From contig CAZRWD010000009.1 of assembly GCA_964603785.1 (NCBI GenBank), forward strand, positions 18,082 through 82,081: a DNA stretch of 64,000 nt, in the 5' to 3' direction. Both the position numbers and the translations under genes were made by a program. The first letter of the stretch is position 1, and each line of letters opens with the position of its first letter. Below, one piece after another: positions 1,530-36,569 of the stretch. Below the pieces are notes generated by a model. That model ran no database searches and had not been told where the DNA came from. It saw nothing but the letters and a program-made list of their open reading frames with translations. This DNA is from an uncultured bacterium (GTDB lineage Bacteria > Fermentibacterota > Fermentibacteria > Fermentibacterales > Fermentibacteraceae).

Positions 1530-1599
1530 TCGTCCTCCGTGCGGGGAAGGTTGCCTTCGGTGATCCGTTGGAGGCGACACTACGGAGGCATGGGGTTCC

Positions 1600-2508: not shown

Positions 2509-2509
2509 G

Positions 2510-6207: not shown

Positions 6208-6299
6208 CCGACACCTCCGTTGCCAGGCCGGACACCGCCGGCACGAATCTCATAACTTCATAAAATCTAAAGTTGGATGGCAGGCCGGGTCAATGACTT

Positions 6300-7004
6300 C
6301 TATTTCCTGGCGGGGTATATGACCACGGCGCCATCCCCCGGAGCCTCCCCCACCGTCACGGACACCGTGTAGAAGCCCTGCGCGACTCCCTCGGAGGGCA
6401 CGCTGACGGCAAGCCAGAGGCAGCCGCCCGTTCCGGCGACCCCCGCCCAGGACTCGCCCACGCCGAACGGCCGGCCATCCTCGCCGATCCTCGCCACCAG
6501 CTCGCCGTCCCGGGCCTCCGGGGCAAGAGCGACCGAGGAGGAGGTCCGCTCCGTGCCCGAGGGTCCCGTCGAGCCCGTTCCCATGTTGGTGCGCCCGCCG
6601 GCCAGGATCACGATCTGCGAGCCCTCGACCACCTCCACGTGGGTGCAGGTCCAGCCTGCGGCGGCGCTCACGTCCATGAGCAGGTTCTGCACGGAAGAAG
6701 GGCCCCAGGAGATGCTGGCGACCTCGCGGAGCGGCACCGTGGTGTCGTATCCCGACCCGTCCACCGTCAGGACCCTGTCCTCTATCGTGACCGCTCCCCT
6801 GGTGCGGACGCCGCTGCGCAGCAGGACGACCGCCTGGGAGGAGGGCACCCCGGTCGAGAAGCCGTCGAAGACGGCCTCGCCTCCGGAGAGCGAGCGGAGC
6901 CTGCCCATGACCACGCTGCCGTCGGCGGCAACCATCCTGTCCGGGGTCCGGCTGCAGCCGGCCGCCAGGCCGGCCGCTGCTGCGAGAGCAAGGATTCTTC
7001 TCAA
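6300..7004 (-). CDS. Lipoprotein, function unknown
   Basis: Lipobox [17 protein letters not shown]. Its ATG overlaps the lon stop (ATGA). Confidence 0.55.
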   Translation of the reverse strand: MRRILALAAAAGLAAGCSRTPDRMVAADGSVVMGRLRSLSGGEAVFDGFSTGVPSSQAVVLLRSGVRTRGAVTIEDRVLTVDGSGYDTTVPLREVASISWGPSSVQNLLMDVSAAAGWTCTHVEVVEGSQIVILAGGRTNMGTGSTGPSGTERTSSSVALAPEARDGELVARIGEDGRPFGVGESWAGVAGTGGCLWLAVSVPSEGVAQGFYTVSVTVGEAPGDGAVVIYPARK

Positions 7005-9337: not shown

Positions 9338-9705
9338 CACCCCTCCACTGAAACGTTCGAGCACTCGTCGGGGTCGATCCCGATCCTGACCGGACCGGCG
9401 GGCATCAGGGGCATCTCGATCCTCAGGACGCCGTCCCTCATCTCGGCCGTAGCTTCGGAAGCCTCGATCCTGGCCGGCAGATCGATCTCGCGCTCGAAGC
9501 GGCCCGTCCTGATCTCCAGCCTCTCGGCCGCGAGCCCGGGGAGTATGGGACCCCTGACGCCCCGCACGACGACCGATCTGCTCCTCGCGAAGACCTCCAC
9601 GTCCGGGGGCCGCATGCCGGGCAGCTCCACGAAGAGTATCAGGTGCGTCTGCGTCTCGTAGAGGTCCACGGCCGGGGACCAGTATCCGCCAAGGCTCTGC
9701 AGCAA
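9337..9705 (-). CDS. Hsp20/alpha-crystallin family small heat-shock protein
   Basis: Alpha-crystallin domain: VDLYETQTHLILFVELPGMRPPDVEV ... RSFRL-like REIDLP...GVLRIEMP. It lies immediately upstream of lon. Confidence 0.8.
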   Translation of the reverse strand: MLQSLGGYWSPAVDLYETQTHLILFVELPGMRPPDVEVFARSRSVVVRGVRGPILPGLAAERLEIRTGRFEREIDLPARIEASEATAEMRDGVLRIEMPLMPAGPVRIGIDPDECSNVSVEG

Positions 9706-9718
9706 TGTTCCTCCCGGC

Positions 9719-22381: not shown

Positions 22382-24193
22382 TCAGACCCGGTCGGGAGGA
22401 CCGCCCGGGCGTCGTCCGGACATGTCCTCGCGGCCAGGCCGCGCGGGAGACACCATGCGTGAGTATAGCCCGCAGGATACGAGCAGTTCCATGTGGGTGC
22501 CGGAGGCCGCCACCGCCCCGCCGTCGATCAGGAGCACCCGGTCTGCGGCCTCGAGCACAGTCGGGTCGTGGCTGACCGCTATGCACATGAGGTCGGCCGA
22601 TATGGAGCGGACGGTGTCGAGGAGCGCGGAGGCCATCGAGTGCTCGAGCGACGAGGTGGGCTCGTCCAGGACGAGGAGGGCCGGCTCGCGCACGAGAGCC
22701 CTGGCGAGGGATACCCGCCGCCTCTGACCCTCGGACAGGAGCACGCCCCGCTCTCCCACGGGCGTATCGGCGCCCAGCGGCAGGGATGCCGTGAATCCCG
22801 CCGAGCCCGAGAGCTCCAGCGCCTTCTCGACAGCCTCGCGGGATGCGTCCGGGCTCCCCGCCAGCACGTTCTCGAGGACGGTGCCCGGCAGGAGGGAGAC
22901 GACCTGGGGGACATAGCCGATCCTCGCGCGGAGGGCGGATGTCCCGTACTCGTCGGCATCCCTGCCGTCGAAGAGGATCCTGCCCCCGGAGGGCCTGTAC
23001 AGCAGCAGCATCAGTCTGAGCAGCGTCGTCTTGCCGGCTCCGCTGGGTCCGGCCATCGCCAGCAGCCCGCCCTTCGAAGCCCTGAAGGAGAGGCCGTCGA
23101 ACAGGGGCGCCCTGCCGGGATACCCGAAGGAGACCCCTTCGAACTCGAGGGTCGAGAAGGCGGGCGCCTCCGTCCGCCCGCCGGGCACGGCCGGTTCCTC
23201 CGGCTCCACCTGCCAGATCTCGTCCAGGCGCTCGAGCGCGGCCGCGGCTCCCTGGAGATCGAGGGAGGACGAGGCGAGGAACCTGGCCGGGCTGAAGACG
23301 GCCGCCAGGTAGGCCTGGAAGGCGATCAGGGTACCGAGGCTCATCGACCCGTCGAGGACCATGCCCCCTCCGGCGAGGAGCACGCCGAGGTGGACGGCAC
23401 CCTGCACGAGTTCGAGGGAGACCGCCGCCAGCGAGCCCTGCCTGGTCCTCTCTATCCCTATCCCCAGGAGCCTGTCGAGCCTCCCTGTGAAGCCGCCGAG
23501 AACCCGCCCCTCCATGCCGTAGGCCTTGACCACCTCCGAGGCGGCGACTCCCGACACGAGGTGTCCGACCGCATCGGCGTTGCTCTCCATCGCCCGGGCG
23601 GCCAGACGTCTCATCCTCCCCGCGAAGAGCGACGCGACGAGGAAGAGGAGGGGTACGGACAGGGTCGCCGCGAGGGCCAGCCTCCACTCCAGGATCATTA
23701 TCAGGACGACGCTCCCCGCGAGGCGCAGGGCGGAGGAGACCATCCCGGGGACCGCGCCGGTGAACACCCATCTGAGCGTTCCGAGGTCCGAGGTGAAGCG
23801 GGTGGCCAGATAGCCCTCCCCGAAGCGGTCGTGGAAGGCCAGGGGGAGCCTCAGCGTCCTCTCGAGGAACCTCTCCTGGAGCTCCAGCCCGATCCTCCTG
23901 TCCAGCCTGGCGGAGGTCATCTGCTGTGCGTAGCCTGCAGCCGTTCCGGCCAGCCTGAGCCCCGCCAGCAGGGCGGCCCCGGCGAGGAGCCAGCCCCGGT
24001 CGCCACCGAGCAGGGCCCTGTCCACGAGCGATCGCGTGACGGCCGGGAGCGCCAGGGTCAGGGCGGTGCCCGCCGCGAGCAGCAGCAGGACGGCCAGCAG
24101 CCCTCTTCCGCCGCTCCTGAACACCGGGACCAGGACCTCCCTGGAGAAGGGCCTGCCGTACAGCGCCCGGAGCCCCGGAGTCCGCTCTCTCAT
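22382..24193 (-). CDS. ABC exporter, fused permease + ATP-binding domains (MsbA/bacteriocin-exporter type, no C39 peptidase domain)
   Basis: Six predicted TM helices, followed by Walker A GPSGAGKTT, signature LSEGQRRRVSLARAL and Walker B LLVLDEPTSSLE. Its ATG overlaps the kinase gene stop (ATGA). Confidence 0.85.
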   Translation of the reverse strand: MRERTPGLRALYGRPFSREVLVPVFRSGGRGLLAVLLLLAAGTALTLALPAVTRSLVDRALLGGDRGWLLAGAALLAGLRLAGTAAGYAQQMTSARLDRRIGLELQERFLERTLRLPLAFHDRFGEGYLATRFTSDLGTLRWVFTGAVPGMVSSALRLAGSVVLIMILEWRLALAATLSVPLLFLVASLFAGRMRRLAARAMESNADAVGHLVSGVAASEVVKAYGMEGRVLGGFTGRLDRLLGIGIERTRQGSLAAVSLELVQGAVHLGVLLAGGGMVLDGSMSLGTLIAFQAYLAAVFSPARFLASSSLDLQGAAAALERLDEIWQVEPEEPAVPGGRTEAPAFSTLEFEGVSFGYPGRAPLFDGLSFRASKGGLLAMAGPSGAGKTTLLRLMLLLYRPSGGRILFDGRDADEYGTSALRARIGYVPQVVSLLPGTVLENVLAGSPDASREAVEKALELSGSAGFTASLPLGADTPVGERGVLLSEGQRRRVSLARALVREPALLVLDEPTSSLEHSMASALLDTVRSISADLMCIAVSHDPTVLEAADRVLLIDGGAVAASGTHMELLVSCGLYSRMVSPARPGREDMSGRRPGGPPDRV

Positions 24194-25107
24194 CCTGCAT
24201 CCCCGAGGAGGCTCCTGACCGCGGACCAGTCCGGACCCTCCAGCGTCAGCCCAGCCGTGGCGCAGGGCACCGAGAGCGCCAGGCGCCTAGCGAGCCCGGC
24301 GGCCTCGATGGCCACCGCCGGGGGCAGGTCGTCGTGACGGCACCAGCATCCTTCGTGGAGCCTGCGGATCGCCTCGCCCGAATCGATCCTGCACAGCGAG
24401 AAGGCGTCGGCCTTCTCGAGGAAGAGGACGGCCCCGAGCGGCGCAGGCCCGCCATCCGGTTCGAGGAGGCTCCAGCCGGTCGGATGGACGAGCGGCCGGT
24501 CTCCCTCGATGCTCACGGCGTTGCAGTCGTCCGACAGGATGCGCCCTCCGTGGCCGGAGAGGACTGCGGTGGTCTTCCCCCCCTCGTCGGGGGCTACCAT
24601 CAGGACTCCCCTTCCGTCCAGGACGACGGCGGAGCTGTGGATCAGCAGGGTCGAGAAGAGCGGCGTGAAGGGCGAGACGATCCCCGGGTTGAGGGTGAGC
24701 ACCGTGTCCAGGTCTTCGGGCACCCTGTCGCCGTTGGTCAGGGCCAGGGAGGCTGCGCGGTCGAAATCCCACAGCGTCAGTGTGTCGGTCCTGCGGTCCG
24801 CGGTCAGCCCGAAGGCGCGGGACGGCTCGGGACCGAACTCCCCCGCCAGGATGCGGGCAGCCTCGCCGCAGCCCGGCCCTCCCGAGGCGACCGCACGGGA
24901 CAGCCTGTCGAACGCGGGGCCGGGGAGCCTGTCGAACACGATCCCCACGGATCCGCGCGGGGCCGATCCGTCGTCGCCGGCTCCCAGGTCCCGGAAGGCG
25001 TACCTGGTCCTTGTCCTGATCGTGATCTGGAAGCTGATGCCCGCAAAAGCGAAACGGAGGCCGCACGGGCCTCCGATCTCGATCCTGCGGTTCCGGGGAG
25101 CGGTCAA
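24190..25107 (-). CDS. HprK-related kinase (HPr kinase/phosphorylase C-terminal-domain-like P-loop protein)
   Basis: LIHSSAVVLDGRGVLMVAPDEGGKTTAVLSG matches the HprK C-terminal-domain pattern LH(A/S)SAV...G.G.L..G.SG.GKST. TTG start lies 7 nt after the precursor B stop. Confidence 0.6.
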   Translation of the reverse strand: MTAPRNRRIEIGGPCGLRFAFAGISFQITIRTRTRYAFRDLGAGDDGSAPRGSVGIVFDRLPGPAFDRLSRAVASGGPGCGEAARILAGEFGPEPSRAFGLTADRRTDTLTLWDFDRAASLALTNGDRVPEDLDTVLTLNPGIVSPFTPLFSTLLIHSSAVVLDGRGVLMVAPDEGGKTTAVLSGHGGRILSDDCNAVSIEGDRPLVHPTGWSLLEPDGGPAPLGAVLFLEKADAFSLCRIDSGEAIRRLHEGCWCRHDDLPPAVAIEAAGLARRLALSVPCATAGLTLEGPDWSAVRSLLGDAG

Positions 25108-25114
25108 GGCCGCT

Positions 25115-25330
25115 TCAGGCCATCGATCCGGTTCTGCAGCCGTAGGCGACCTGGGAGCCGAGAATGCACTCGATGGACCAGTCGGGAGCTATCCCCGTGG
25201 GGCGGCACTGGTTCTGTATGGGCTGGGAACCGGGGAGGCAGATGCCCCTGGATCCGTCGTCCGTTAATCCCCTGTCCCCCGAGAGGTCTATGGAGCCAGG
25301 CGCCTCGTAAAGCGATCTGTAGCCCGGCAT
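25115..25330 (-). CDS. Cys-rich precursor-like peptide B (71 aa), paralog of peptide A
   Basis: ATG with SD GGGGGTGA 2-3 nt upstream. Sequence: MPGYRSLYEAPGSIDLSGDRGLTDDGSRGICLPGSQPIQNQCRPTGIAPDWSIECILGSQVAYGCRTGSMA. Four Cys spaced 12/12/9, conserved with peptide A. GC3 bias is good. Confidence 0.6.
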   Translation of the reverse strand: MPGYRSLYEAPGSIDLSGDRGLTDDGSRGICLPGSQPIQNQCRPTGIAPDWSIECILGSQVAYGCRTGSMA

Positions 25331-25480
25331 TTCACCCCCGTTTCCATGCTCCCGGCTCAACAGGTCCGGGATGGCGCGTGAGCGGCTTCCACACCCTTAG
25401 AATACGGTCCGGGGGGGATGGTTCCCGTCTCCCGGCAAAGGCGAGCATAAGACGAACCCTCCGGAAACACCAGAGGCCGG

Positions 25481-25693
25481 TCAGACCATGGACCCCGCGT
25501 TGCACATGTAGGCCACCTGCCCGCCGACGTTGCAGCGGATCGGGATGTGCGGGGCGTGACCGACCGGCGAGCACTGGTTCTGGACCGGATGGGTCCCCGG
25601 ATTGCAGATGCCCGTCACACTTCCCCCCTGGAGACCGGGACCCCCGGACAGGTCCATGCAGCCGGGGGATTCGTAAAGCCTTCCCTCAGGCAT
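25481..25693 (-). CDS. Cys-rich precursor-like peptide A (70 aa)
   Basis: ATG start. Sequence: MPEGRLYESPGCMDLSGGPGLQGGSVTGICNPGTHPVQNQCSPVGHAPHIPIRCNVGGQVAYMCNAGSMV. It shares with peptide B the motifs LYExPG, DLSG, GICxPG, QNQC, QVAYxCxxGSM. It lies immediately downstream of the second rSAM gene. Confidence 0.65.
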   Translation of the reverse strand: MPEGRLYESPGCMDLSGGPGLQGGSVTGICNPGTHPVQNQCSPVGHAPHIPIRCNVGGQVAYMCNAGSMV

Positions 25694-26828
25694 CCCGCCC
25701 GCCTTCCATGCCTTGCGCCCTGAGCCTGGACGCGGGGAACAGACCGAGCGACTCGGCCATGCCGCAGAAGGCGTTGCCGGAGGATATGCTCCTGCCCGCC
25801 AGATAGTTCAGGGCCACGCAGTCACCCCTGCAGAAGTCCCTGTGGATGCAGCGCGAGCATGTCCCCCCGAGCCCGGACGGGATGGTCTCCCGTATCTCCC
25901 GCAGCACCGGCGCACTCCTCCAGACCTCCTCCAGCCCGTCGCTCCGGATGTCGCCGAAGACCAGGCCCGGAAGCGACACCCCCGCCCCGCATATCGAGAT
26001 CTCTCCCGTGTGGAGTATGCCGAGGACGGTGTGTATGTCGCAACGGGAGCAGCCCTGCCTGAAGAGGTAGCCGGGAGGGAGGAACGCGGGGGGCAGGTGC
26101 AGGATGATCCGGGGGCCGGGCTTCGAGGCCCGCTCCGCCAGCTCGGAGCCCGCCCGGAGGAGGTCGCGGGGCTCGAGGAGCTCCTCCCCGGGGACGTCGC
26201 CCCCCCTTCCGATCGGCTGGATGTGGTTGAACTTGACCGATCCGCAACCCAGGCGCTCCGCCATGTCGATCACGTCCGTGACCTCGCCCGCGTTGCCCTT
26301 GTGGAGAGTGCAGATGAGCTGCGGCCTGATGCCCCGCCCGACGAGCCTTCCGATCCCCTCCATTGCCCGCCCGAAGCAGCCCGGCACCCCCCTGAGGGCC
26401 TCGTGGGTCTCCGCCGTGGCGCCGTCGACGCTCACGGAGATCGACCTGAGCACGCCGCATCCGGCGAGCAGGTCTGCGGTGGATTCGGTGAGGAGGGTCC
26501 CGTTGGTCTCCACCACGAGCTGGATGCCGTGCTCCGCGACCATGTGCACTATCTCGCCGAACGCGGGGTTCAGAAGGGGTTCGCCGCCCGTCAGCTTGAC
26601 GCTTGCCAGGCCCAGGGGCACGGCCTGTTCGACGGCGCTCCGCGCGACTTCCGGAGACATGTGGAGCGACGGGCCGGGGGCGTCTCCCTGGACGGGGCTG
26701 ATCCAGCAGTGCCTGCAGGAGAGGTTGCATGCCCCGGAGACGTACATGTAGAGTGATGCCAGAGGAGGGACTCCGGCACAGGGTCCGGGGGGGGCGGCGG
26801 CTCCGCAGGCCGGCGGGTCACACGGCAT
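25686..26828 (-). CDS. Radical SAM/SPASM-domain protein 2 (peptide-modifying maturase-like)
   Basis: CNLSCRHC (CxxxCxxC) near the N-terminus. C-terminal SPASM cysteines CSRCDIH...ISICGAG...GGTCSRCIHRDFCRGDC. The start is ATG 26828 (strong SD GAGGGGGG) or ATG 26750; the 26 codons between them have weaker GC3 bias. Confidence 0.85.
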   Translation of the reverse strand: MPCDPPACGAAAPPGPCAGVPPLASLYMYVSGACNLSCRHCWISPVQGDAPGPSLHMSPEVARSAVEQAVPLGLASVKLTGGEPLLNPAFGEIVHMVAEHGIQLVVETNGTLLTESTADLLAGCGVLRSISVSVDGATAETHEALRGVPGCFGRAMEGIGRLVGRGIRPQLICTLHKGNAGEVTDVIDMAERLGCGSVKFNHIQPIGRGGDVPGEELLEPRDLLRAGSELAERASKPGPRIILHLPPAFLPPGYLFRQGCSRCDIHTVLGILHTGEISICGAGVSLPGLVFGDIRSDGLEEVWRSAPVLREIRETIPSGLGGTCSRCIHRDFCRGDCVALNYLAGRSISSGNAFCGMAESLGLFPASRLRAQGMEGGRDA

Positions 26829-27918
26829 CGGACACCCCCCTCGAAACGGCGAACCTCCTGTAGCAGTCGACCGGGACGACGGCGTTCATGTCGCCGGTCA
26901 TCTCCAGGGCGAGCCCGGGACAGCTCCCGGTGCACCATGCCGAATAGGCGCACCCGCCGCAGCCCGGCACCTCCTCCATCGGGATATCCGCCCTCGCCCT
27001 CAGCGCCTTCATCACGGGGTGGTCCAGCCAGACTCCGGCGAGCCCGTCGGTGGTGACGTTCCCCATCACCATCCCGTGCAGGATGTGGCAGGGGACGATG
27101 GAGCCGTCGTGCATGACGTCGATCCTGGACCATACGCAGCCGCATCCGGACAGGAACCCGCCGCGGTATCCCGAAGGGGGCGCTCCCGTCCGGGACGAGG
27201 CGGCGATCGAGTCGAAGAACCCCGTCCGGGCGGCGGGGCCGGCCTGGGCCTGTATCCGCCCGGGATACCTCGCCATGAGCTCCCTGAAGTCATCCATGGC
27301 CCTCCAGGACTCCTCGGGCGTGAGGACCCCCCCGGAGGGACCGCAGCCGGAGCCCATGCCGAAGGCCTCGTTGGTCCCGAAGGAGTCGAGGCCCAGGTCC
27401 TCCAGCAGGAACCTGGCGAGGTCCCCCAGGTGGTCGACGTTGTGCCTGCCGATGGTTGCCCGGACCGCCACGGGGAGCCCCGCGGCGCGGGCTCTCTCCA
27501 GACCCGCGACGGCGGCTTCGAACCCTCCAGGGCGGGAGCGCTCGTGGACTTCCGCGCAGTGCCCGTCGATGGAGATCTGCAGATAGTCCATCCTGGTCCT
27601 CCGCCTGCCTTCGGCCAGCCTGCCGGCCATCTCCTCCGTGAGGAGGGTGCCGTTGGAGAGTATGGAGTACCGGAGCCGGTTCTCCACCGCCCTGTCCACC
27701 AGGTCGACGAAGCCGGGCCGCAGCAGGGGCTCCCCGCCCGTGAACAGGACCCTCATGACACCCATCGAGCCGAGCTGGTCGATGAAGGAGAGCCAGTCCC
27801 GGTCGGGGAGGTCGGGCAGCAGGTTCATCTCGTTCGCATAGAAGCAGTAGCCGCACGAAAGGTTGCACCGGCCGGTGACGGCGATGCCCACGGTCCTGGG
27901 GGCTTCCGGCAGCTGCAC
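26818..27918 (-). CDS. Radical SAM/SPASM-domain protein 1 (peptide-modifying maturase-like)
   Basis: GIAVTGRCNLSCGYCFYANE (CxxxCxxC at residues 17-24, so there is no N-terminal RRE domain). SPASM cysteines CGCVWSRIDVMHDGSIVPCH and CGGCAYSAWCTGSC. GTG start lies 1 nt after the PqqD stop. Confidence 0.85.
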   Translation of the reverse strand: MQLPEAPRTVGIAVTGRCNLSCGYCFYANEMNLLPDLPDRDWLSFIDQLGSMGVMRVLFTGGEPLLRPGFVDLVDRAVENRLRYSILSNGTLLTEEMAGRLAEGRRRTRMDYLQISIDGHCAEVHERSRPGGFEAAVAGLERARAAGLPVAVRATIGRHNVDHLGDLARFLLEDLGLDSFGTNEAFGMGSGCGPSGGVLTPEESWRAMDDFRELMARYPGRIQAQAGPAARTGFFDSIAASSRTGAPPSGYRGGFLSGCGCVWSRIDVMHDGSIVPCHILHGMVMGNVTTDGLAGVWLDHPVMKALRARADIPMEEVPGCGGCAYSAWCTGSCPGLALEMTGDMNAVVPVDCYRRFAVSRGVSDAV

Positions 27919-27919
27919 T

Positions 27920-28228
27920 TCAGGCGGGCGGGATCCGGAGGACGAAGCCGGCCTTCTCCATGTCCTCGAGGAAGGAGGCCACGTCGTCCTCCACCCGCCC
28001 GGCCGGGGCTTCCTCGAAGGCCCCGGCCAGCGATGCTGCTATGTCGGAGACCGGCCGGACGCCGTCGAGGCCCGACCACACGAAGAGGCCGGTCGCATTG
28101 AGTATCCTCACCCTGTTGGCATCGGGATCGAACAGGAGCCCGCCCTCCCGGTCCTCCTCCCGGAGGGTCACGACCGGGTTGCGCGAGTAGACAGCTCTCC
28201 CCCGGGGGGTCGATTCATGCTCCGTCAT
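27920..28228 (-). CDS. Standalone PqqD-family peptide chaperone (RiPP recognition element)
   Basis: LLFDPDANRVRILNATGLFVWSGLDGVRPVSDIAASLAGAFEEAPAGRVEDDVASFLEDMEKAGFV is a classic PqqD fold signature. The preferred start is ATG at M8 of the table ORF, with SD GGAGGT upstream. Confidence 0.8.
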   Translation of the reverse strand: MTEHESTPRGRAVYSRNPVVTLREEDREGGLLFDPDANRVRILNATGLFVWSGLDGVRPVSDIAASLAGAFEEAPAGRVEDDVASFLEDMEKAGFVLRIPPA

Positions 28229-29189
28229 CCGGACCTCCGGTTTCCACAACGCATCCGACTGGCGCGGAGTTCCTGCGGCCGGTCCTCTCGATCGCGAGGA
28301 ACACGGCCCCGATCAGAACCGCGAACCACAGGGTGGCGAAGCGCATGAGCAGTGTGACCGCCGCCGCGCCGGCCCCGCCGAGCGGGCCCGACAGGATCCC
28401 GTCCATCGTCAGCTCGGTGAGCCCCAGTCCCCCCGGTATCATGGACACGGCCCCGGCGATGGTCCCCGCGGAATGAGCCAGCAGTGCGGTCCCCGCACCC
28501 GTCCCGAGGCCTATCGATCTCGCCGCGGCCGCTATGACCATCGCCTCGAGACCCCACGACAGGACCCCGAGCGGAACGGAGACGGCGAGGCTGGCGGGTC
28601 CGAGGAGATCGCCGCAGGTATCCCTGAACGAGCACAGGGAATCGCTCCTCCCCCTGAGCGGGCGGATGCGGCAGGCGAGGCCGGCGAGCGCGCCGAAGAT
28701 CCTCCTCGAGGAGAGAACGGCCACGGAGGCGGCCGTCACGAGAGCGCCGGCGGCTATCACGGGCGCCACCGCGGCGCCTCCGGCGAGGGCGGCTCCCGCG
28801 GCCGCGAGCACCGTCATGCTCATGAGGTCGGTGATCCGCTCCGCAACGACGACGGGAGATGTCCGCGAGACGGGGATGCCCTCCCTGTCGCGGAGGAGGC
28901 AGGACTTCAGGAGCTCGCCGAACTTGCCCGGAGAGACGGTCATCGAGAAGCCGGCCAGGAACACCTGCAGGCTCCGTCCGAATCCGGGTCTGATCCCGGC
29001 GCGCCCGAGGAAGTAGTGCCATTTCAGGAACCTGAGGAAGTAGTTCGCCAGGGGCAGGCCGAGGATCGCGGGCAGCCACCGGGGGTCGAACGATTCGAGG
29101 GCCGCGCCTGTGCCGCGCATGTCGCCCGCCAGGACCAGGACCGAGTAGACGACGATCGCCAGGGCCGCGGTCAGGAGCAGCTTCTTCAA
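28218..29189 (-). CDS. UPF0104 / lysylphosphatidylglycerol-synthase-TM-like ('flippase-like') integral membrane protein
   Basis: C-terminal 324 aa of table ORF 28215..30152 (the upstream part is antisense to the TPR gene). Motifs DPRWLPAILGLPLANYFLRFLKWHYFL...GKFGE, with multiple TM helices. The putative TTG start overlaps the upstream TGA (TTGA). Confidence 0.65.
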
Positions 29190-29992
29190 GAAGACGCTTC
29201 CCGGCCCCCGCCGTCCCCGCCGCAGAAGGCGGCGAGCTCGCCGTGCAGCTTCTCCCAGCCGGGCAGGCCGCCGACCAGCTTCATCGCCTTGCGGGCCAGG
29301 TCGATCGCCTCGGTGCCCTCCCCGAGGAGCCTGCTGGCCCTGGCCGCCAGCGCCAGGGCCTGGGCCCTGGGCCCCCTCGTGAGGTCGGAGGACGAGAGCA
29401 GCTCGTAGCCGGTCATCGCATGCACCAGGGCGTCCCTCGGCTCCCTCCTCTCGAGGTGGAGCAGGGCCAGGTTGACGTGGACCCCGCTCCTGGCGGAGCC
29501 CTGCCTGAGCTCCAGCGCCTCGCAGAGCAGCTCCTCGGCCTCGTCGAGCCTCTCCCGCCGCTCGAGGAGCAGGCCGGCCAGGTTCACCGCGAGGGTTGCC
29601 TTCAGGGAGGGGTCCTTCTCCATGGCCTTGCGGTAGTACTGCTCGGCCTGCACGGCGTCCCCCCTGCCTGCCGAGATGTATCCGAGCTGCCCGATGGAGG
29701 CGGCGCTGCGGTCGCCCTTCTCGATGGCCTGCACGACGACCCGTTCGGCCTCGTCGAACCTGCCCGAGCGGATCAGGAAGTAGACGAGGGCGTTGGTCAG
29801 GGGCTCGACCACCGACGACCTGTCCCTGTTCCTCTCGAGGTAGTGGATCATCTCGTCCACCCTGTCGGCGGCCGCGAGCCTCGAGGCCTTCTGGAGCTGC
29901 AGTCGCTTCCATGCCATCGATCTGGTGAGCATGATGCCTCCCAGGGCGAGGAGGACCAGGAGCGCGAGCGCCCAGGCCTGCCAGGGAATCAT
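29186..29992 (-). CDS. Membrane-anchored TPR-repeat protein
   Basis: Start MIPWQAWALALLVLLALGGIMLTRS (TM anchor) at aa 52 of the table ORF. Its ATG overlaps the PBP1A stop (ATGA). TPR repeats follow. Confidence 0.6.
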   Translation of the reverse strand: MIPWQAWALALLVLLALGGIMLTRSMAWKRLQLQKASRLAAADRVDEMIHYLERNRDRSSVVEPLTNALVYFLIRSGRFDEAERVVVQAIEKGDRSAASIGQLGYISAGRGDAVQAEQYYRKAMEKDPSLKATLAVNLAGLLLERRERLDEAEELLCEALELRQGSARSGVHVNLALLHLERREPRDALVHAMTGYELLSSSDLTRGPRAQALALAARASRLLGEGTEAIDLARKAMKLVGGLPGWEKLHGELAAFCGGDGGGREASS

Positions 29993-32241
29993 CTCGGGCC
30001 TCCCGTTCCGAGGATCCTGTCGAACTCGGTGAAGTCGGGAATGGTCGTGTCCGAGAGGAAGGGCGAGGAGGACGTGTGTATCGGGCAGGACGAGACGGGC
30101 GGCGTGCCGGCCCAGAACAGCTCGTCCACGGCCTTGTCGCCGCACTCCGCATTGGCGAGGAAGCCGGACTGCCTGCAGATGACCGCGTGCTCGACCGCGC
30201 TGGAGGGGATGGAGGGGAAACGCGGGGCCGAGGACGGATCGGCGTCGCGGAAGACCCGCCTCATGAACCTGCCCCAGATGGGGACGGCGATGTCGCCGCC
30301 GGCCTCACCACGGCCGCTCTGCAGCCTGATCCTGATCACATGGTTGTCGTACCCGACCCAGACCGAGGCCACCAGGTCGGGTGTGAACCCGATGAACCAG
30401 GCGTCGGCGTAGTCGCTGGTGGTGCCGGTCTTGCCACCGGCATCCCTTCCGGCGTACGCACCTCCCCAGTACCAGCGCGTCCCCGTCGCCGTACCGGCCC
30501 TGACAACGCTCTGCAGCAGGTTGTTCATGAGCCAGGCGCCCGTCTCGGACATCACGCGCGTGCCGGCCGCCACCTGCTCGTTCGACTCCAGCACGTTCCC
30601 GTACCTGTCCTCGACCCGCAGGATCCCGGTGGCGCGCCTGGCGATGCCGCCCGTGGCGAACGGTATGTAGGCCTGGGCCATCTCCAGGGGGCTCAGCATG
30701 CAGCTCCCCAGGGGCAGGGAGTTCACCACCGGGAGGTCGCTCTCGATGCCCATCGACCTGGCCCTGGCCGCGACGGCCTCGATGCCCACGGCCATCCCCA
30801 GCCTGACCGCCGCGACGTTGTACGACCTCGCGAGGGCTTCGCGGAGGGTGACCATGCCGTGGAAGCGGCCGTCGTAGTTCCTGGGCCTCCACTGGCCCGG
30901 GGAGAGGTCCACGACCACCGGCTGGTCGAGGATGACGTTGCCCGGAGACCAGCCCTGCTCTATCGCCTCGGCGTACACGAACGGCTTGAAGGAGCTTCCC
31001 GGCTGCCTCCTGGCCTGGACGGCCCGGTTGAACTCGCTGTCCTGGAAGTCCCTGCCGCCGACCATCGCCCTTATGTAGCCGGTCCTGGGATCGACCGCGA
31101 CGAGTGCGCACTGGATGTAGTCGGGGGCTCCCGATGCCGTGTCCCCGACCACCTGCCACCTGTCGTAGGAGCTCTCGTACCGGAGCCGTGTGAGGTCTCT
31201 GGCGAAGGTGTCGGTAACGGGATCCCAGACGGGCTCCACGAGGGCCATCACGCTGTCCACCGCCATCTCGGCGGCGGCCTGCATGTCCGGGTCTATGGTG
31301 GTCCAGACGACCAGCCCCTGCTCGTAGACCGCCGACCAGCCGTACCTCGCGACGAGGTACTGCCGTATGTACTCGGAGAAGTAGTCCCACTGCTCCTCGA
31401 GCTCCGGCCTGGAGATGCTCACGCCCAGAGGCGCGGCCGAAGCCTGCTCCATCTGGTCGCCCGTGATGAAGCCCTCCTCGCGCATCATCGCCAGGACGAC
31501 GTTCCTCCTGGCCATGCACCTCTCGGGATTGCGGAGGGGGCTGTACCCGGAGGGGTTCCGGGGCATGCCCACCAGGAGCGCGGCCTGGCTCAGGGTCAGG
31601 GCGGAGGATGAGGTGCCGTCGAAGTAGGTCTGGGCCGCCGCCTCGATCCCGTGGGCGCCCTGGCCGAAGTAGATCAGGTTGAGGTACATCTCCAGGATCT
31701 CCTCCTTGGAGAACTGCCTCTCGATCTCCATCGCGATGAACATCTCCTGGAGCTTCCTCTGCACGGTCTGGTCGGGCACGAGGAAGAGCCCCCTGGCGAG
31801 CTGCTGCGTTATCGTGCTCCCGCCGTGCCTCGCCCCGGTGGTGAGGTCGACCCAGACCGCCCTGAGGAGGCCCCTGACGCTCACTCCCGAGTGCTCGTAG
31901 AAGTTCTTGTCCTCGGTCGCTATGAATCCCATGGCCACCCAGGGGCTTATCCTGTCCATGGTGACGGGCTGCCTGTTCTCGACGAACGCGCAGGCCATCT
32001 CGTTGCCGTGGGAGTCGTAGATCCTCGTCGCGGCGGAGGGCTCCTGCCCCCTGAGGCCGGCCACGAGGATGTTCCCCCTGGCCTGCCTGAAGGCCACGCT
32101 GCAGTCGTTGTACACCCGAAGGAGGAAGCCCCCCCCGAAGAAGGCGCTCATCACCAGGGCGATGAGAAGCCAGCCCGCCACGGCCGCCGGCGTCGAAGTC
32201 CGCGCGGAGGCCCCTGCAGAGGTCCTATTCGGCGGAGCCAA
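29989..32241 (-). CDS. Class A penicillin-binding protein (PBP1A-type bifunctional transglycosylase/transpeptidase)
   Basis: GT51 motifs EDKNFYEHSGVS, GGSTITQQLAR and RKLQEMFIAMEIE. Transpeptidase motifs SSFKPF, SYN and KTGTT. Confidence 0.9.
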   Translation of the reverse strand: MAPPNRTSAGASARTSTPAAVAGWLLIALVMSAFFGGGFLLRVYNDCSVAFRQARGNILVAGLRGQEPSAATRIYDSHGNEMACAFVENRQPVTMDRISPWVAMGFIATEDKNFYEHSGVSVRGLLRAVWVDLTTGARHGGSTITQQLARGLFLVPDQTVQRKLQEMFIAMEIERQFSKEEILEMYLNLIYFGQGAHGIEAAAQTYFDGTSSSALTLSQAALLVGMPRNPSGYSPLRNPERCMARRNVVLAMMREEGFITGDQMEQASAAPLGVSISRPELEEQWDYFSEYIRQYLVARYGWSAVYEQGLVVWTTIDPDMQAAAEMAVDSVMALVEPVWDPVTDTFARDLTRLRYESSYDRWQVVGDTASGAPDYIQCALVAVDPRTGYIRAMVGGRDFQDSEFNRAVQARRQPGSSFKPFVYAEAIEQGWSPGNVILDQPVVVDLSPGQWRPRNYDGRFHGMVTLREALARSYNVAAVRLGMAVGIEAVAARARSMGIESDLPVVNSLPLGSCMLSPLEMAQAYIPFATGGIARRATGILRVEDRYGNVLESNEQVAAGTRVMSETGAWLMNNLLQSVVRAGTATGTRWYWGGAYAGRDAGGKTGTTSDYADAWFIGFTPDLVASVWVGYDNHVIRIRLQSGRGEAGGDIAVPIWGRFMRRVFRDADPSSAPRFPSIPSSAVEHAVICRQSGFLANAECGDKAVDELFWAGTPPVSSCPIHTSSSPFLSDTTIPDFTEFDRILGTGGPR

Positions 32242-33565
32242 GCCCGCTCCTCCCGAAGACCGGCACCCCGCCCTCGTACCTGAGGGTGTACTCGTAGATC
32301 CCCTCGCTTCCGACCAGGGTCACCTCCCTGGATGACGACCCCGCCACGGGCTGGGAAGAGAACTCGCAGTGGAGGTCGCTCTCGTACCCCTCGTATGTCC
32401 TCCAGACGAGCCTGTAGCCCGAAGGCCTGCCCTCGTACAGGAACAGGTTGCCGGCCCAGTAGACCACCCTCTCGGGGTCCTGGTCGCCGTTCATCTCGAC
32501 GCCCAGGGCGCGCCAGACCGTTATTCCGATGTCGTTCTCGAAGCGCTGCTCGGTCAGGTGCGGGTCAAGGCTGATGACCATCTCCTCGAGCGGTTCGTCG
32601 ACTCCGGTGGTCAGGAGGGCCGGCCAGGTCGTGCCGAGACTGTCCAGCTCCTCCACCAGGTCGCTCACGGCGAGGAAGCTGCTCCTGAGGACGGCCAGCC
32701 TGGCCAGGTCCAGCGTCGAGTCGGGCACAGGAGCCCACTCGCCGGTCGACCGGAGGACCTGCATCGCCTCGTGCCTGTTGCGAAGGACGGCCTTGGAGAG
32801 GTATGCGAGCTCCCTCCAGGAGGCGACGAAGCCGTTCAGCTCCACGGGGACGTTGGTCAGGTTGTAGGTGGCCCGGTCCTGGACGATCTGCAGCTTCGCC
32901 GAGCGCCTGATGTTGGAGAACGCCAGGCGGGCGTAGTCCTGCGGCTCGAGTGACGCGACGTAGTCCTCGAACGCCACCCCGGACGCCAGGGCGGCGTCGA
33001 GGGACGCACAGGCCTGGACGGAGTCGATCCGGCAGTCGTCGAGGAGCTGCCTGGCGAACCTCATCTCGAAGCGCATCTGCGGGTTCGCCGTTATCATGCG
33101 GGCGATCCGCTCCACGTTCAGCGAGTCCATCACCTCGTCGGGGATCTCCTCGCCGAAGGCCTCGATGAGCCATCCGTCCGCGCAGAGGAGGAAGTCGATG
33201 CGGACTATCGCCGGGTCGTCCATCCTGCGGATGCTGCAGTAGTAGGACGTCCTCGAGCCGGTGCTGTCGGTAAGCACCTCGGTGAGCCTGCCCGAGGGGT
33301 CGAAGCCCCTCCAGCGGCCGAAGATGTCCCATGGCTGGACGTCGAGGGCGGCCAGGGAGTCGCGCGTCCGGGGCACGATCAGGTCGAGGCATTCCGGATC
33401 GTTCAGGGCGAGGAGGTTCGAGAACTCCAGGGCGACCTCCAGCGGTGACGCGGGCATGGCGACCACCTGCGTCGTGTCGGGCCCGGACGACACGCCGTCC
33501 CCGCCCCCGCAGCCCGGGAGGGCGGGGAGCAGAGCCGCGAGGAGCGCGGGAAGGAGATGCTTCAT
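32225..33565 (-). CDS. Lipoprotein, function unknown
   Basis: Internal ATG giving MKHLLPALLAALLPALPGC (lipobox) at aa 160 of the table ORF. Immediately follows the GspE/PilB stop. The upstream 159 aa are Arg-rich frame noise. Confidence 0.55.
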   Translation of the reverse strand: MKHLLPALLAALLPALPGCGGGDGVSSGPDTTQVVAMPASPLEVALEFSNLLALNDPECLDLIVPRTRDSLAALDVQPWDIFGRWRGFDPSGRLTEVLTDSTGSRTSYYCSIRRMDDPAIVRIDFLLCADGWLIEAFGEEIPDEVMDSLNVERIARMITANPQMRFEMRFARQLLDDCRIDSVQACASLDAALASGVAFEDYVASLEPQDYARLAFSNIRRSAKLQIVQDRATYNLTNVPVELNGFVASWRELAYLSKAVLRNRHEAMQVLRSTGEWAPVPDSTLDLARLAVLRSSFLAVSDLVEELDSLGTTWPALLTTGVDEPLEEMVISLDPHLTEQRFENDIGITVWRALGVEMNGDQDPERVVYWAGNLFLYEGRPSGYRLVWRTYEGYESDLHCEFSSQPVAGSSSREVTLVGSEGIYEYTLRYEGGVPVFGRSGLGSAE

Positions 33566-35262
33566 TCCAGTCCCATCGTTACGGCCATCATCTCGTTGGG
33601 GGTCGTCACGCCGTCGTAGACCTTCATCGCGGTGCCGGACCGCAGGGTCCTCATGCCGTCCTCGACCGCCAGCCTCCTGAGCTCGTCTATCGTCGCCGAG
33701 CGGGCCAGGGCGGAGCGGAACCTCTCGGTCACCTCCAGCACCTCGAAGACCGCGGTGCGTCCCTTGTATCCGGTCCCCCGGCAGGCCCTGCAGCCCCTCC
33801 CCCGCCTGAAGCGGGCGTTCTCCCGGCCCGTGAGCCCGGAGGCCTGCAGCACGGAGGCGGGAGGCTCCCATTCCTCGGCGCACTCCTCGCAGACCTTCCT
33901 GACGAGCCTCTGCGCGACTATCCCGACGAGCGTGCTGCACAGGAGGAAGGGCTCCACCCCCATGTCGAGCATCCGGATCGCGGTGGAGGCGGTGTCGTTG
34001 GTGTGCAGGGTGCTGAGGACGAGGTGCCCGGTCAGCGCGCACCTGATGGCGCTCTTCGCGGTCTCCTGGTCCCTCACCTCGCCTACCATGATGATGTCGG
34101 GGTCCTGCCTCAGGATGTGCCTGAGGGCGTTCGAGAAGGTGACATCTATGGCCGGCTGCACGGCGATCTGGTTGAACTCGTCGGTGACGAACTCGATAGG
34201 GTCCTCTATCGTGGTGATGTTCTTCTCGGCCGTGGCGAGCGTGGTCAGGGTGGAGTAGAGCGTCGTGGTCTTGCCGGACCCGGTCGGCCCCGTCACGAGG
34301 ATGAGCCCCATGGTGTGGCGCACCAGCCGCTGGTACCTCTCGCGCTCGTCCTCCTCGAACCCCAGGCTGGAGAGGTCCTGCATCAGTATGCCGGGGTCGA
34401 GGATCCTCAGGACGGACTTCTCCCCGAACGCCACCGGGATCGTGGACACCCTGATCTCCACGGGCTTGCCCTCGAAGTGGGTCCTTATCCTGCCGTCCTG
34501 GGGCCTGCGCTTTTCCGCTATGTTCATGCCCGATATCATCTTGACTCGCGAGAGTATGGGGAGGTGCAGCTTCTTCGGGATGCTGTAGACGTTGTGCAGC
34601 ACCCCGTCGATCCTCAGCCTGACGACCGTGCCCTCCCTGTGGGGCTCGAGGTGTATGTCGCTTGCCCTCTCCTCGAAGGCATACTGCAGCAGGTGGTTGA
34701 CCGCGTTGACGACCGGCCTGTCGGTCGGTTCCAGATTGCCCGAGGTCTCGCTCGAGACGTACCTCTCGAGGTTCCCCAGGTCCACATCGTCCTCGCCGAC
34801 GGCCCCCACCTCCTTCGCCGCGGCGACGATCGAGCTGTGCAGGCCGTAGAACTGCCGTATCACCTTCGCAATGTCGGACGGCCTGCTTATGAAGAGGTCG
34901 ATCTCCCTGCCCAGGAGGTGGGGCAGGTCCTCCAGGGGGCGGGGGTCGACGAGGTTGCAGGTGGCCACCATCAGACGGTCTCCGGAGTTCCCGACCACCA
35001 CGACGTGGTTCCTCTGCGCGAAGGCGCCGGGCAGGGAGGATGTGACCAGCTCGTAGTCGAGCTCCAGCGGATCGAGATTGCGGAACGGGACGCCTATCAT
35101 GCCGGCGAGGAAGGTGTACAGGTCCTCCTCGGTGATCAGCCCCCTGCCCACGAGCACGTTCAGGAGGCCGGGGTCGGAGCCCTTCCAGAGGCGCGAGAGC
35201 CTCTCGAGCCCCTGCCTGCTCAGCAGGCCGGCTTCCGCGAGCTTCGCGGGGAGCGAGGCCAT
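33562..35262 (-). CDS. GspE/PilB-family secretion ATPase (type II secretion / type IV pilus assembly)
   Basis: GTPTGSGKTTTLYS Walker A, the His box and tetracysteine motif CEEC...CRACRGTGYKGR, and an N-terminal GSPII-type domain. Start MASLPAKLAEAGLL at aa 97 of the table ORF. Confidence 0.85.
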   Translation of the reverse strand: MASLPAKLAEAGLLSRQGLERLSRLWKGSDPGLLNVLVGRGLITEEDLYTFLAGMIGVPFRNLDPLELDYELVTSSLPGAFAQRNHVVVVGNSGDRLMVATCNLVDPRPLEDLPHLLGREIDLFISRPSDIAKVIRQFYGLHSSIVAAAKEVGAVGEDDVDLGNLERYVSSETSGNLEPTDRPVVNAVNHLLQYAFEERASDIHLEPHREGTVVRLRIDGVLHNVYSIPKKLHLPILSRVKMISGMNIAEKRRPQDGRIRTHFEGKPVEIRVSTIPVAFGEKSVLRILDPGILMQDLSSLGFEEDERERYQRLVRHTMGLILVTGPTGSGKTTTLYSTLTTLATAEKNITTIEDPIEFVTDEFNQIAVQPAIDVTFSNALRHILRQDPDIIMVGEVRDQETAKSAIRCALTGHLVLSTLHTNDTASTAIRMLDMGVEPFLLCSTLVGIVAQRLVRKVCEECAEEWEPPASVLQASGLTGRENARFRRGRGCRACRGTGYKGRTAVFEVLEVTERFRSALARSATIDELRRLAVEDGMRTLRSGTAMKVYDGVTTPNEMMAVTMGLE

Positions 35263-35282
35263 GTCTATCCTGGGTATGGCTC

Positions 35283-36569
35283 TCACATGACCTCCAGGAT
35301 CAGCGGCCGGTTGGGCGCGTCCCAGATGAAGCCGCCCTCCAGGGTCCCCGCGGCCTCCTCCGCCTCCGCGGCGCTCCGCGCGTGGACCCATCCCACTATC
35401 TGCCCGTCCTCGACCTGGAACCCGGAGTCGGCGGCCTGCTCCCAGCCCACGTCGTGCATCACCTCGTCGTCCATCCTGTAGCGGCCGGCTCCGAGAGCCC
35501 TGACCGCCTCGCCCGCCACACGGGCGTCGACCCCGGTCCAGTACCCGCACCTGTCGCTGCGGACCTCGCGCACCACCGGAGCCGGCCGTCTGCTCCTGAA
35601 GGCCTCCAGGTCACCGCCCTGCGCCCCGACCATCGAGGCGAACCTCTCCATGGCCGCCCCGGACGAGAGAAGGGCGGCGCACTCCGCCCTCGCCGCGGCG
35701 ATGCCGCCGGTCGAACCCCGCGCGATGGAGACCATCATCGCTGTCAGCTCGACCGAGAGGTCGCGGACCGCGCCTCCCGAACGGCCCTCGAGGATGTCCA
35801 GCGCCTCGGCGGTCTCGAGCGCGTTGCCCGCGGTCCGGCCGAGGACGGTGTCCATGTCGGTGACGGCAGCCCCCACCTCGAGGCCGCACCGCCTGCCCAC
35901 CTCGGCCAGGGTCGCGGCCAGGCCGGAAGCCTCGGAGGTGGAGGTCATGAAGGCCCCGCGGCCGGCCTTCACGTCCAGCACCAGGGTGCCTATGCCCTCC
36001 GCGAGCTTCTTGCCCAGTATGCTCGCGCAGATGAGCGGCACCGACTCGACCGTGGCTGTTGCGTCCCTCAGCGCATAGAGGATCCTGTCGGCCGGGGCGA
36101 GGGCGGCGGTCTGCCCTCCCATCGCCAGACCCGTCTCCGCTACCAGCCTCTCGAACTCGGCCGGCTCCAGGGAGGTCCTCATGCCCGGGATGGCCTCGAG
36201 CTTGTCGAGGGTGCCTCCCGTGTGACCCAGGCTCCTGCCGCTCAGCATGGGCACCCTCAGACCGGCCGCCGCGGCCAGCGGGGCCACGATGAGCGAGACC
36301 TTGTCGCCCACCCCGCCGGTGCTGTGCTTGTCCGCAACCGGCCCGCCGGGCCCGGGCCAGGCCATGACGGTGCCGCTGTCGCGGATGGCCAGCGTTAGCT
36401 CGACGGTCTCCTCCCGGTCGAGCCCCCTGATGAAGCAGGCCATGAGGAGGGCCGCCGCCTGGTACTCGGTCACGGAGCCCGACACGAGCCCGGCGACGAA
36501 CTCCGCCAGAGCGCCCGGGGGCAGCCTGCGACCGTCCCTCTTCAGGGCTATCAGCCCGGACGGCTTCAA
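35283..36569 (-). CDS. Thymidine/pyrimidine-nucleoside phosphorylase
   Basis: KHSTGGVGDKVSL, GRSLGHTGGTLDKLE and SKKLAEG-like motifs. TTG start overlaps the upstream TGA (TTGA), giving MKPSGLIALKRDGRRL, which aligns to the family N-terminus. Length ~428 aa. Confidence 0.85.
   Translation of the reverse strand: MKPSGLIALKRDGRRLPPGALAEFVAGLVSGSVTEYQAAALLMACFIRGLDREETVELTLAIRDSGTVMAWPGPGGPVADKHSTGGVGDKVSLIVAPLAAAAGLRVPMLSGRSLGHTGGTLDKLEAIPGMRTSLEPAEFERLVAETGLAMGGQTAALAPADRILYALRDATATVESVPLICASILGKKLAEGIGTLVLDVKAGRGAFMTSTSEASGLAATLAEVGRRCGLEVGAAVTDMDTVLGRTAGNALETAEALDILEGRSGGAVRDLSVELTAMMVSIARGSTGGIAAARAECAALLSSGAAMERFASMVGAQGGDLEAFRSRRPAPVVREVRSDRCGYWTGVDARVAGEAVRALGAGRYRMDDEVMHDVGWEQAADSGFQVEDGQIVGWVHARSAAEAEEAAGTLEGGFIWDAPNRPLILEVM

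Follow-up and report, generated by a model that had tools for sequence, protein, structure and literature searches.

What is made by a run of eight genes lodged among the core genes of an uncultured member of the Fermentibacteraceae, and does the pathway that they encode belong to a kind that is already catalogued? The run lies on the minus strand at positions 22382 to 29189 of the 64,000-nucleotide stretch of contig CAZRWD010000009.1 analysed here (hereafter the window), and a first-pass annotation of the letters alone had read it as a maturation locus with radical S-adenosylmethionine (rSAM) enzymes for a peptide that is ribosomally synthesised and modified post-translationally (RiPP), in a combination that it took to be undescribed. 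Pfam and NCBIfam domains together with conserved precursors support a RiPP-type rSAM peptide-maturation locus; the novelty of the combination fell away, since the parts list is that of the SynChlorMet (Scm) cassette, already modelled as TIGR04252, TIGR04249, TIGR04248, TIGR04250, TIGR04251 and PF27840. We conclude with moderate confidence that the locus is a divergent Scm RiPP maturation cassette, which, with the mechanism inferred below included, is its best explanation.

The locus is a divergent SynChlorMet cassette

The open reading frame (ORF) listing of the window contains all eight genes that the annotation had named, each at its place on the minus strand, and Pfam and NCBIfam confirm their domains (HMM, hidden Markov model; GC3, GC content at third codon positions):

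22382..24193, minus strand: ATP-binding cassette (ABC) exporter, fused permease and ATPase, 603 aa, without a peptidase domain (PF00664 137 bits, PF00005 109 bits)
24190..25107, minus strand: ScmC-like protein, putatively an HprK/PEPCK-type P-loop enzyme, 305 aa (weak PF27840 match; TIGR04352 HprK_rel_A 18.5 bits)
25115..25330, minus strand: precursor peptide B, ScmA-like, 71 aa (family HMM E 8e-20; GC3 0.79)
25481..25693, minus strand: precursor peptide A, ScmA-like, 70 aa (family HMM E 1.1e-18; GC3 0.83)
25686..26828, minus strand: ScmF-like radical SAM/SPASM enzyme, 380 aa (TIGR04251 333.4 bits)
26818..27918, minus strand: ScmE-like radical SAM/SPASM enzyme, 366 aa (TIGR04250 303.6 bits)
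27920..28228, minus strand: ScmD, standalone PqqD-type RiPP recognition element (RRE) (PF05402 53.2 bits; TIGR04248 51.5 bits)
28215..29189, minus strand: flippase-like membrane protein, LPG_synthase_TM, formerly UPF0104 (PF03706 150.9 bits; TIGR00374 64.4 bits)

Read in the direction of transcription, the gene order is ScmD, ScmE, ScmF, two tandem ScmA-like precursors and ScmC, followed by the ABC exporter. The window has the ordered set by which an Scm architecture is recognised (a PqqD protein, then a pair of rSAM/SPASM enzymes, then a small precursor and lastly a protein related to HprK), and it matches the catalogued cassette in all five components and in their order. In NCBIfam the two rSAM enzymes score far higher on their own Scm models than on any other (333.4 bits against 145 for the next family in ScmF, a margin of 188; 303.6 against 125 in ScmE, a margin of 179), and TIGR04248 is the best match of ScmD at 51.5 bits, the next family reaching 29.8. 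Comparison with the neighbourhoods of relatives, comprising six loci (L012 to L017) and 80 metagenome loci, revealed that the order ScmD, ScmE, ScmF, peptide, ScmC recurs in all six and in most of the metagenome loci. Typically, one or two small peptides follow ScmF, and ScmC is followed by a protein of ~200 aa and often by an ABC exporter and an NTP_transf_5 nucleotidyltransferase. Scm-bearing loci span 31% to 69% GC, indicating a very wide taxonomic spread, and more than 1,400 ScmF homologs were found, the nearest of them only 45-50% identical to the window protein and many named ScmF by JGI. A single-sequence search of genome contigs with ScmF yielded nothing beyond two remote rSAM genes of Cloacimonadota (28-29% identity), with no cassette.

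Against this identification, the curated NCBIfam cutoffs are missed for all five Scm models (400 bits for both TIGR04251 and TIGR04250, 100 bits for TIGR04248). ScmC gave no match to TIGR04249 (cutoff 125) even at E<=10, and the window peptides gave none to the ScmA model TIGR04252 (cutoff 35 bits). The syntenic ScmC ortholog in L014 does match TIGR04249, at 18.5 bits, and in L012, a locus closer to the canonical cassette, ScmF itself scores only 376.5 bits on TIGR04251, so the cutoff of that model is narrow. The window also departs from the catalogued cassette in its precursors, which are longer, occur in two tandem copies and carry a C-x-P-x-G second module, and in its accessory genes, as it has no S26/SipW-like peptidase and no NTP_transf_5 gene and instead has a flippase-like partner. 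Because the cutoffs are missed and the accessory genes differ, we class the locus as a divergent variant rather than as an equivalog member.

A literature search with the cassette name and the Scm model identifiers returned no paper on the cassette, its product or its chemistry. The Scm cassette is widespread and catalogued only as database models.

The two small ORFs are genuine precursor genes

At ~69% GC the window abounds in long spurious frames. One could accordingly propose that there is no peptide pathway at all, that the rSAM proteins mature cofactors or sulfatases and that the small ORFs arose by chance in GC-rich DNA; the second tier of rSAM model matches does include enzymes of heme and heme d1 synthesis. 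The peptides themselves speak otherwise. Peptides A and B are 56% identical with four invariant Cys, their GC3 (0.83 and 0.79) is coding-like and close to that of neighbouring genes (~0.88), the ratio of nonsynonymous to synonymous substitution rates (dN/dS) between them is ~0.25, and both are preceded by Shine-Dalgarno-like sequences (GGGGGTG for peptide B). The identical locus occurs in independent assemblies, in which both small genes are called, peptide A in 14 contigs.

Other cassettes carry homologs in the corresponding place, across loci of 31% to 69% GC, which settles in the affirmative whether the small ORFs are conserved. In the window, in L012 to L017 and in part of the 80 metagenome loci the peptide HMM picks up one or two ORFs immediately behind ScmF, and inspection reveals analogous small ORFs in most metagenome loci; among 55 loci eligible for this count, 39 have a recognisable peptide, which lies directly downstream of ScmF in 31. 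Word-indexed homolog searches with the peptide alignment, and likewise with ScmC, returned the query proteins alone, and an index-free profile search of 1.84 billion proteins yielded ~9 further small peptide homologs. P0140, a cluster mate of the match P0129, is encoded just downstream of ScmD, ScmE and fragmented ScmF genes. Profile-profile alignment with hhalign joined the window-type to the ScmA-type profile at 98% probability (E 1e-13); therefore, the window encodes two divergent ScmA precursors.

Nor do the enzymes or the neighbourhood favour a pathway without a peptide. The PqqD recognition protein always adjoins in the metagenome loci sampled, the Scm models beat the heme models by >180 bits, AhbD reaches 117-145 bits against a cutoff of 500, and the anaerobic sulfatase maturase anSME is not among the best 25 matches; no sulfatase or heme-pathway genes were seen among the genes annotated in and around the cluster. 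The NCBIfam scores thus favour Scm and place the rSAM proteins outside non-peptide families such as sulfatase maturases, a point that the first-pass annotation had singled out for checking. The small ORFs are genuine genes and not chance reading frames, and a non-peptide pathway, contradicted by the conservation of the peptides, is in our estimate extremely improbable.

Precursors combine a lasso-like leader with a periodic Cys module

We assembled 52 curated precursor sequences with 264 Cys and examined their leader and core. The family leader has the form K/R-x-x-Y-E-x-P-x4-L; relative to Tyr at position 0, K/R occurs at -3 in 78%, Glu at +1 in 56% and Leu at +8 in 85%, with Pro at +3, and, as a point against our interpretation, the set was partly gathered by a regular expression for the leader, so that the frequencies of Tyr and Pro hold by construction. 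Both window leaders carry the lasso-like motif L-Y-E-x-P-G-x-x-D-L-S-G, and one Scm leader weakly matches the lasso_leader_L3 model.

The cores are rich in Gly, Ser, Ala, Cys and Thr and repeat a module of ~10-11 residues, C-x-x-G-x-x-[A/P/V], in keeping with a peak of the Cys-Cys spacing at 10-11. Gly stands at Cys+3 in 79% (206 C..G motifs compared to 48 +/- 6 in shuffled cores), and Ala, Pro or Val at Cys+6 in 59%; the last Cys lies 6-9 residues before the C-terminus. Cores hold 3 to 16 Cys, and loci hold 1 to 5 precursor genes. Peptide B of the window consists of the leader LYEAPGSIDLSG and a core of four Cys modules. In both window cores the four modules are spaced 10-13 residues apart and follow C-x-x-G except in module 2, which reads C-x-P-x-G; in peptide A the Cys are residues 30, 41, 54 and 64, in the contexts CNPG, CSPVG, CNVG and CNAGS. 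Searched against the precursor models of Pfam and NCBIfam, the C-x-x-G-x-x-[APV] module had no match beyond weak ones to ScmA, with distant precursors reaching 15-20 bits on TIGR04252 against its cutoff of 35.

An expanded tandem arrangement is found in L063, where a row of five precursor genes (MNNIKKG...YEPPKA.RL...) and a pair of ScmF-like genes lie within positions 7183-10126.

Two SPASM-complete enzymes and a remote HprK relative

Radical_SAM and SPASM domains are detected above the Pfam threshold in both enzymes. The CX3CX2C motif and seven SPASM Cys are 100% conserved in ScmF (58 homologs), and the same positions of ScmE are each at least 98% conserved (46 homologs); with their cluster-binding Cys complete, both look catalytically competent, with two predicted auxiliary clusters. 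The AlphaFold2 (AF2) model of ScmF (pLDDT 88) finds its nearest folds in SkfB, SuiB, PqqE, CteB and anSME (TM-score 0.62-0.70, 17-24% identity), with no close solved structure among these fold matches. By sequence the nearest solved relatives are SkfB, PqqE, BlsE, CteB and SuiB, SkfB being the closest for ScmE, and the second-tier matches include AhbD, NirJ, MftC, PqqE, WgkB and SuiB.

ScmC is far less conserved, being only 20-28% identical to its homologs. It aligns over its full length with the proteins of L012, L013 and L015 that match PF27840, the Pfam counterpart of ScmC, to which the window protein itself has a weak precomputed match. In a 15-sequence alignment H157, G177-K178 (in GGKTT, a Walker-A motif) and D193-D194 (in LSDD, which holds the DD motif known from HprK/PEPCK P-loop proteins) are invariant. 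The first-pass annotation had called this protein HPr-kinase-like, and a match of 18.5 bits to HprK_rel_A (TIGR04352) on residues 153-201 points to a remote relationship. Searching the PDB with the ScmC profile gave weak matches to ATP-dependent phosphoenolpyruvate carboxykinases (ATP-PEPCKs; E 0.016-0.6) and to HprK/P (E ~1), all on the GGKTT/DD block, and a dTALE match that we rejected as spurious. These sequence features are consistent with an HprK/PEPCK-type P-loop enzyme. The ABC exporter scores best in NCBIfam on models of MsbA-related or type I secretion exporters and exceeds the cutoff of none of them.

The enzyme complement varies among relatives. In L083 (31% GC) and L016 there are two or three paralogs of ScmC, and every one of them is paired with a precursor gene of its own. 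In L018, L064, L080, L082 and L085, ScmD directly precedes ScmF with no ScmE between them, hence the second radical SAM enzyme is perhaps not a fixed part of the cassette.

A proposed maturation pathway and its alternatives

In the pathway that we propose, ScmD would bind the leader and offer the core to the enzymes. By 5'-deoxyadenosyl radical chemistry, ScmE and ScmF would next abstract hydrogen from the peptide, and each Cys sulfur would be joined to a nearby downstream carbon. The outcome would be a chain of small thioether rings, unnested and one to each module, a prediction on which our confidence is evenly divided. ScmC would use ATP to modify the peptide, most likely by phosphorylation of a Ser/Thr hydroxyl, and the product would be exported by the ABC transporter. 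The phosphorylation step, modelled on HprK-type kinases of lasso clusters that depend on a PqqD-type protein, is put forward tentatively and is the more doubtful of these two predictions.

The thioether assignment is plausible by analogy with sactipeptides and ranthipeptides (SkfB, CteB, PapB, GggB/streptosactin), whose pathways share with the window a leader followed by a Cys-rich core, a PqqD-type element and SPASM enzymes carrying two auxiliary clusters. The nearest solved relatives are peptide-modifying SPASM/twitch enzymes, led by the thioether synthase SkfB, which comes first by both sequence and fold. Streptosactin, with its 4-residue sactionine rings in an unnested 'type 2' topology (PMC9389541), is a precedent for short unnested rings, and PapB and CteB make beta/gamma-thioethers (PMC9389541). 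The window enzymes nevertheless fail the curated models of these maturases (PapB 80 vs 340, StsB 109 vs 625 and SkfB 58 vs 300 bits), the RRE stands alone as a protein instead of forming an N-terminal domain, and two maturases are joined by a P-loop protein.

The second point of reference is the kinase-tailored lasso cluster (paeninodin PadeK, BsfK, and pseudomycoidin with its kinase and nucleotidyltransferase). In lasso clusters the C-terminal Ser of the precursor receives a phosphate from an HprK homolog, and in pseudomycoidin a nucleotidyltransferase then glycosylates the phosphate (PMC8498205). In the bsf cluster the RRE BsfB1 is needed for phosphorylation, and the lasso leader has the motif YxxPxL (PMC10368454), which the Y-x-x-P-...-L of the Scm leader resembles. 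The window likewise has a PqqD-type RRE as a protein of its own, an ABC exporter and a P-loop protein putatively related to HprK, and other Scm cassettes also encode an NTP_transf_5 nucleotidyltransferase. Unlike lasso clusters, however, the cluster genes include no Asn-synthetase-like cyclase and no B2 transglutaminase-like protease, two rSAM/SPASM enzymes being present instead, and the precursors do not end in Ser. PQQ, mycofactocin and GeoRSP pathways also pair a standalone PqqD-family chaperone with a SPASM enzyme that acts on a small peptide, yet the window enzymes score far below these models (PqqE 73-90 vs 381, MftC 99-118 vs 265, GeoRSP 109-117 vs 400 bits), there are no PqqA/B/C or MftA/D/E/F genes, and the precursor is unrelated. 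Judging from these comparisons, the locus appears to operate as a sactipeptide or ranthipeptide pathway would, with leader recognition of the lasso kind and tailoring by a kinase, yet it fails the membership tests of those families.

Could the Cys be joined by a lanthionine-like route instead? ScmC would then phosphorylate core Ser/Thr, elimination of the phosphate would leave dehydro-amino acids to which Cys adds, and ScmE and ScmF would tailor the product in other ways, such as epimerisation or C-C links. Ser/Thr are indeed enriched at Cys+1, +2, +4 and +5, a P-loop kinase-like protein is a core component (22/29 loci), and lanthipeptides are the precedent for heterolytic, ATP-dependent formation of beta-thioethers (PMC9389541). 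However, Pfam and NCBIfam detect no lyase or cyclase homolog in the window cluster, the best-conserved residue of the core is the Gly at +3 rather than a Ser/Thr, and this route would give no obvious role to two SPASM enzymes that are fully equipped and have a thioether synthase as their nearest solved relative. We consider it improbable.

Alternatively, ScmE and ScmF may carry out reactions in which Cys is not the cross-link donor, for example C-C or C-O cross-linking, epimerisation or Cys oxidation, with the Cys serving as metal ligands or forming disulfides. The diversity of SPASM reactions, reflected in the second-tier matches given above, allows for this, and rSAM chemistry is not predictable from sequence alone (PMC10288494). 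Yet the Cys are periodic and define every module, the aromatic and Lys partners of known C-C links are not conserved, and at least ~6 residues always follow each Cys, as expected if it pairs with a downstream acceptor. We consider such chemistry unlikely, if somewhat less so than the lanthionine-like route.

The preferred pathway, with radical thioether rings and phosphorylation, has its own weak points. The type of cross-link, the acceptor residue and the Cys as the reacting residue are all predictions. A Ser/Thr at Cys+4 of the last module is near-invariant only in the window-type subfamily and not family-wide, which leaves the phospho-acceptor undefined. The link of ScmC to HprK and PEPCK is a ~50-residue motif block with non-significant E-values, and its single-sequence AF2 model has a pLDDT of 32. 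Finally, no S26-like leader peptidase is encoded anywhere in the 64 kb of the window; the leader is therefore cut by a protease encoded elsewhere, or retained.

If the string of mini-rings is real, with or without phosphorylation, it would be a new scaffold among radical-SAM RiPPs; if it is not, the locus is an ordinary divergent instance of a known but unstudied cassette. The present analysis defines a precursor family in which a lasso-like leader precedes a periodic C-x-x-G module, two SPASM-complete enzymes, a P-loop partner and recurrent accessory genes, and the window offers two short precursors and a minimal enzyme set suited to heterologous reconstitution. The locus is a well-defined target for new RiPP chemistry, not a categorically new system.

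A flippase-like partner and a fixed place between PBP1A and SecA

To place the accessory genes, we counted components in the 29 loci with at least 3 kb of sequence downstream of ScmF. ScmC is present in 22/29, an S26/SipW-like peptidase in 21/29, an ABC exporter in 15/29, an NTP_transf_5 nucleotidyltransferase in 10/29 and a flippase-like gene in 2/29, the window and L014. The peptidase is the ~200-aa protein that follows ScmC (L012 10273-10887, L013 10269-10868, L014 10772-11371, L016 12603-13217); it resembles archaeal/SipW-type signal peptidase I (TIGR02228 ~41 bits, weak) and carries GxSM and VHRV motifs, and from these it is probably a Ser/His leader peptidase. NTP_transf_5, too, is absent from the whole 64 kb of the window.

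The flippase-like gene was found only in this lineage among the sampled Scm loci. Its product scores 64.4 bits on TIGR00374, above the cutoff of 43.2, in addition to 150.9 bits on PF03706. In L014 (positions 5584-6897) the LPG_synthase_TM and PqqD portions are fused in frame into a protein of 437 aa, whereas the window (27920-29189) encodes them separately, by two overlapping genes that differ in frame and divide precisely where the L014 fusion has its linker. The split is not a sequencing error, because it is reproduced in independent assemblies. Thus, the recognition element is tied to a flippase-like membrane protein, which suggests that maturation takes place at the membrane, and this unusual link is a further reason for interest in the window.

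The window and L014 also share the arrangement PBP1A, tetratricopeptide repeat (TPR) gene, flippase, cassette and, further on, SecA, in agreement with the earlier suggestion that the system is lineage-conserved rather than mobile. Identities between the two loci fall off from the flanks (PBP1A 81%, SecA 76%, flippase-like protein 66%, TPR protein 58%) to the cassette (ScmF 48%, ScmE 47%, PqqD 47%, ABC exporter 37%, ScmC 31%, peptides about 28%). The lower conservation of the cassette relative to its flanks indicates rapid diversification or replacement in place.

These features raise the possibility of a domesticated, envelope-associated system, in which the peptide is matured at the membrane on a flippase-like scaffold and acts in or on the producer's own envelope instead of being secreted as an antimicrobial. 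Such a reading concerns the biological role and is compatible with the chemistry preferred above. It is favoured by the fixed PBP1A-SecA position in two relatives that share only 48% identity in ScmF, by the co-directional overlap with the PBP1A, TPR and flippase-like genes, by the fusion of PqqD to the flippase in L014, split exactly at the linker in the window, and by the loss of the leader peptidase. Conversely, the cassette proteins (28-48%) diverge far faster than the flanks (58-81%), which is more typical of diversifying secondary metabolism, the dedicated ABC exporter is kept, and the association with a flippase occurs in only 2 of the 29 loci. We regard a domesticated envelope role as rather unlikely. 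Role and chemistry can also be joined: Scm would be an uncharacterised RiPP class in which tandem ~10-residue modules are each ring-closed by one of two SPASM enzymes, with HprK-type phosphorylation, and which has been recruited here to the producer's envelope, its product acting on or in that envelope and not as a secreted antibiotic; the signs of such recruitment would be the flippase-coupled recognition protein, the fixed PBP1A-to-SecA position and the loss of the leader protease. We advance this joint account speculatively and hold it doubtful.

Beside the Scm cassette of L015 and divergent from it, positions 865-4930 (minus strand) encode an ScmC-like protein, two rSAM proteins without a SPASM match, a PqqD protein and an S24-like peptidase, which by gene content appears to be a second RiPP-like set.

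Transcription unit and surroundings of the cassette

The cassette genes are tightly packed, with overlaps of 4, 8, 11 and 14-35 nt and gaps of 1 and 7 nt. The ABC exporter gene overlaps the scmC stop by 4 nt, and the start of peptide A overlaps the scmF stop (ATGCCTGA). The spacer between the peptide genes, which had been put at 120 nt, has that length only if peptide B starts at an upstream TTG (its ORF is open up to the TTG at 25360) and measures 150 nt with the ATG starts previously noted. Similarly, the PqqD ORF is open up to a TTG at 28249, and a GGAGG lies 5 nt upstream of the ATG at 28228. GC3 of the cassette genes is 0.79-0.92, and the total GC of the peptide spacer is 0.64. Further features of the transcription unit are:

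25055..25075, minus strand: terminator-like hairpin of 8 bp, 7 of them G-C, with a T-rich tail (consensus scan)
25458..25476, minus strand: terminator-like hairpin, 5 nt past the peptide A stop (consensus scan)
29186..29992, minus strand: TPR-repeat protein, overlapping both neighbours (ORF listing, Pfam)
29989..32241, minus strand: PBP1A, in an overlapping run upstream of the TPR gene

The same-direction overlapping run extends upstream through the TPR gene and then PBP1A, and the transcription unit may therefore exceed eight genes. The TPR gene is possibly co-transcribed with the cassette, and a role for it in the cassette is without support. A scan for sigma-70-like promoters found none, and no Rfam families or tRNAs were found in the window.

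The hairpin at 25055-25075 lies 40 nt past the stop of peptide B, within the 5' part of scmC that encodes a non-conserved N-terminal extension, and no in-frame start codon comes after the hairpin. Terminator-like sites are not enriched overall in the consensus scan (4 found vs 2.6 +/- 1.9 expected), and the spacer between the peptide genes, taken as a whole, is no more stably folded than its shuffles (z = -0.22); the hairpin after peptide A is therefore only suggestive of partial termination. T-rich-tailed hairpins behind both precursor genes could reflect attenuation that raises the level of precursor transcript, or chance.

The surroundings of the cassette are core genome, with genes for Lon, RecG, SecA, a PilB/GspE-type ATPase, a second transglycosylase and DHODH. 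Among these, 37676-39652 (minus strand) encodes a C-terminal transglycosylase domain behind an N-terminal region of ~460 aa without a Pfam match, and 33562-35550 (minus strand) a secretion ATPase of PilB/GspE type that bears an MshEN domain; both lie upstream of PBP1A. Between PBP1A and this ATPase, 32225-33565 (minus strand) encodes a protein of 446 aa without a Pfam match, whose counterpart in L014 has the same position and 61% identity.

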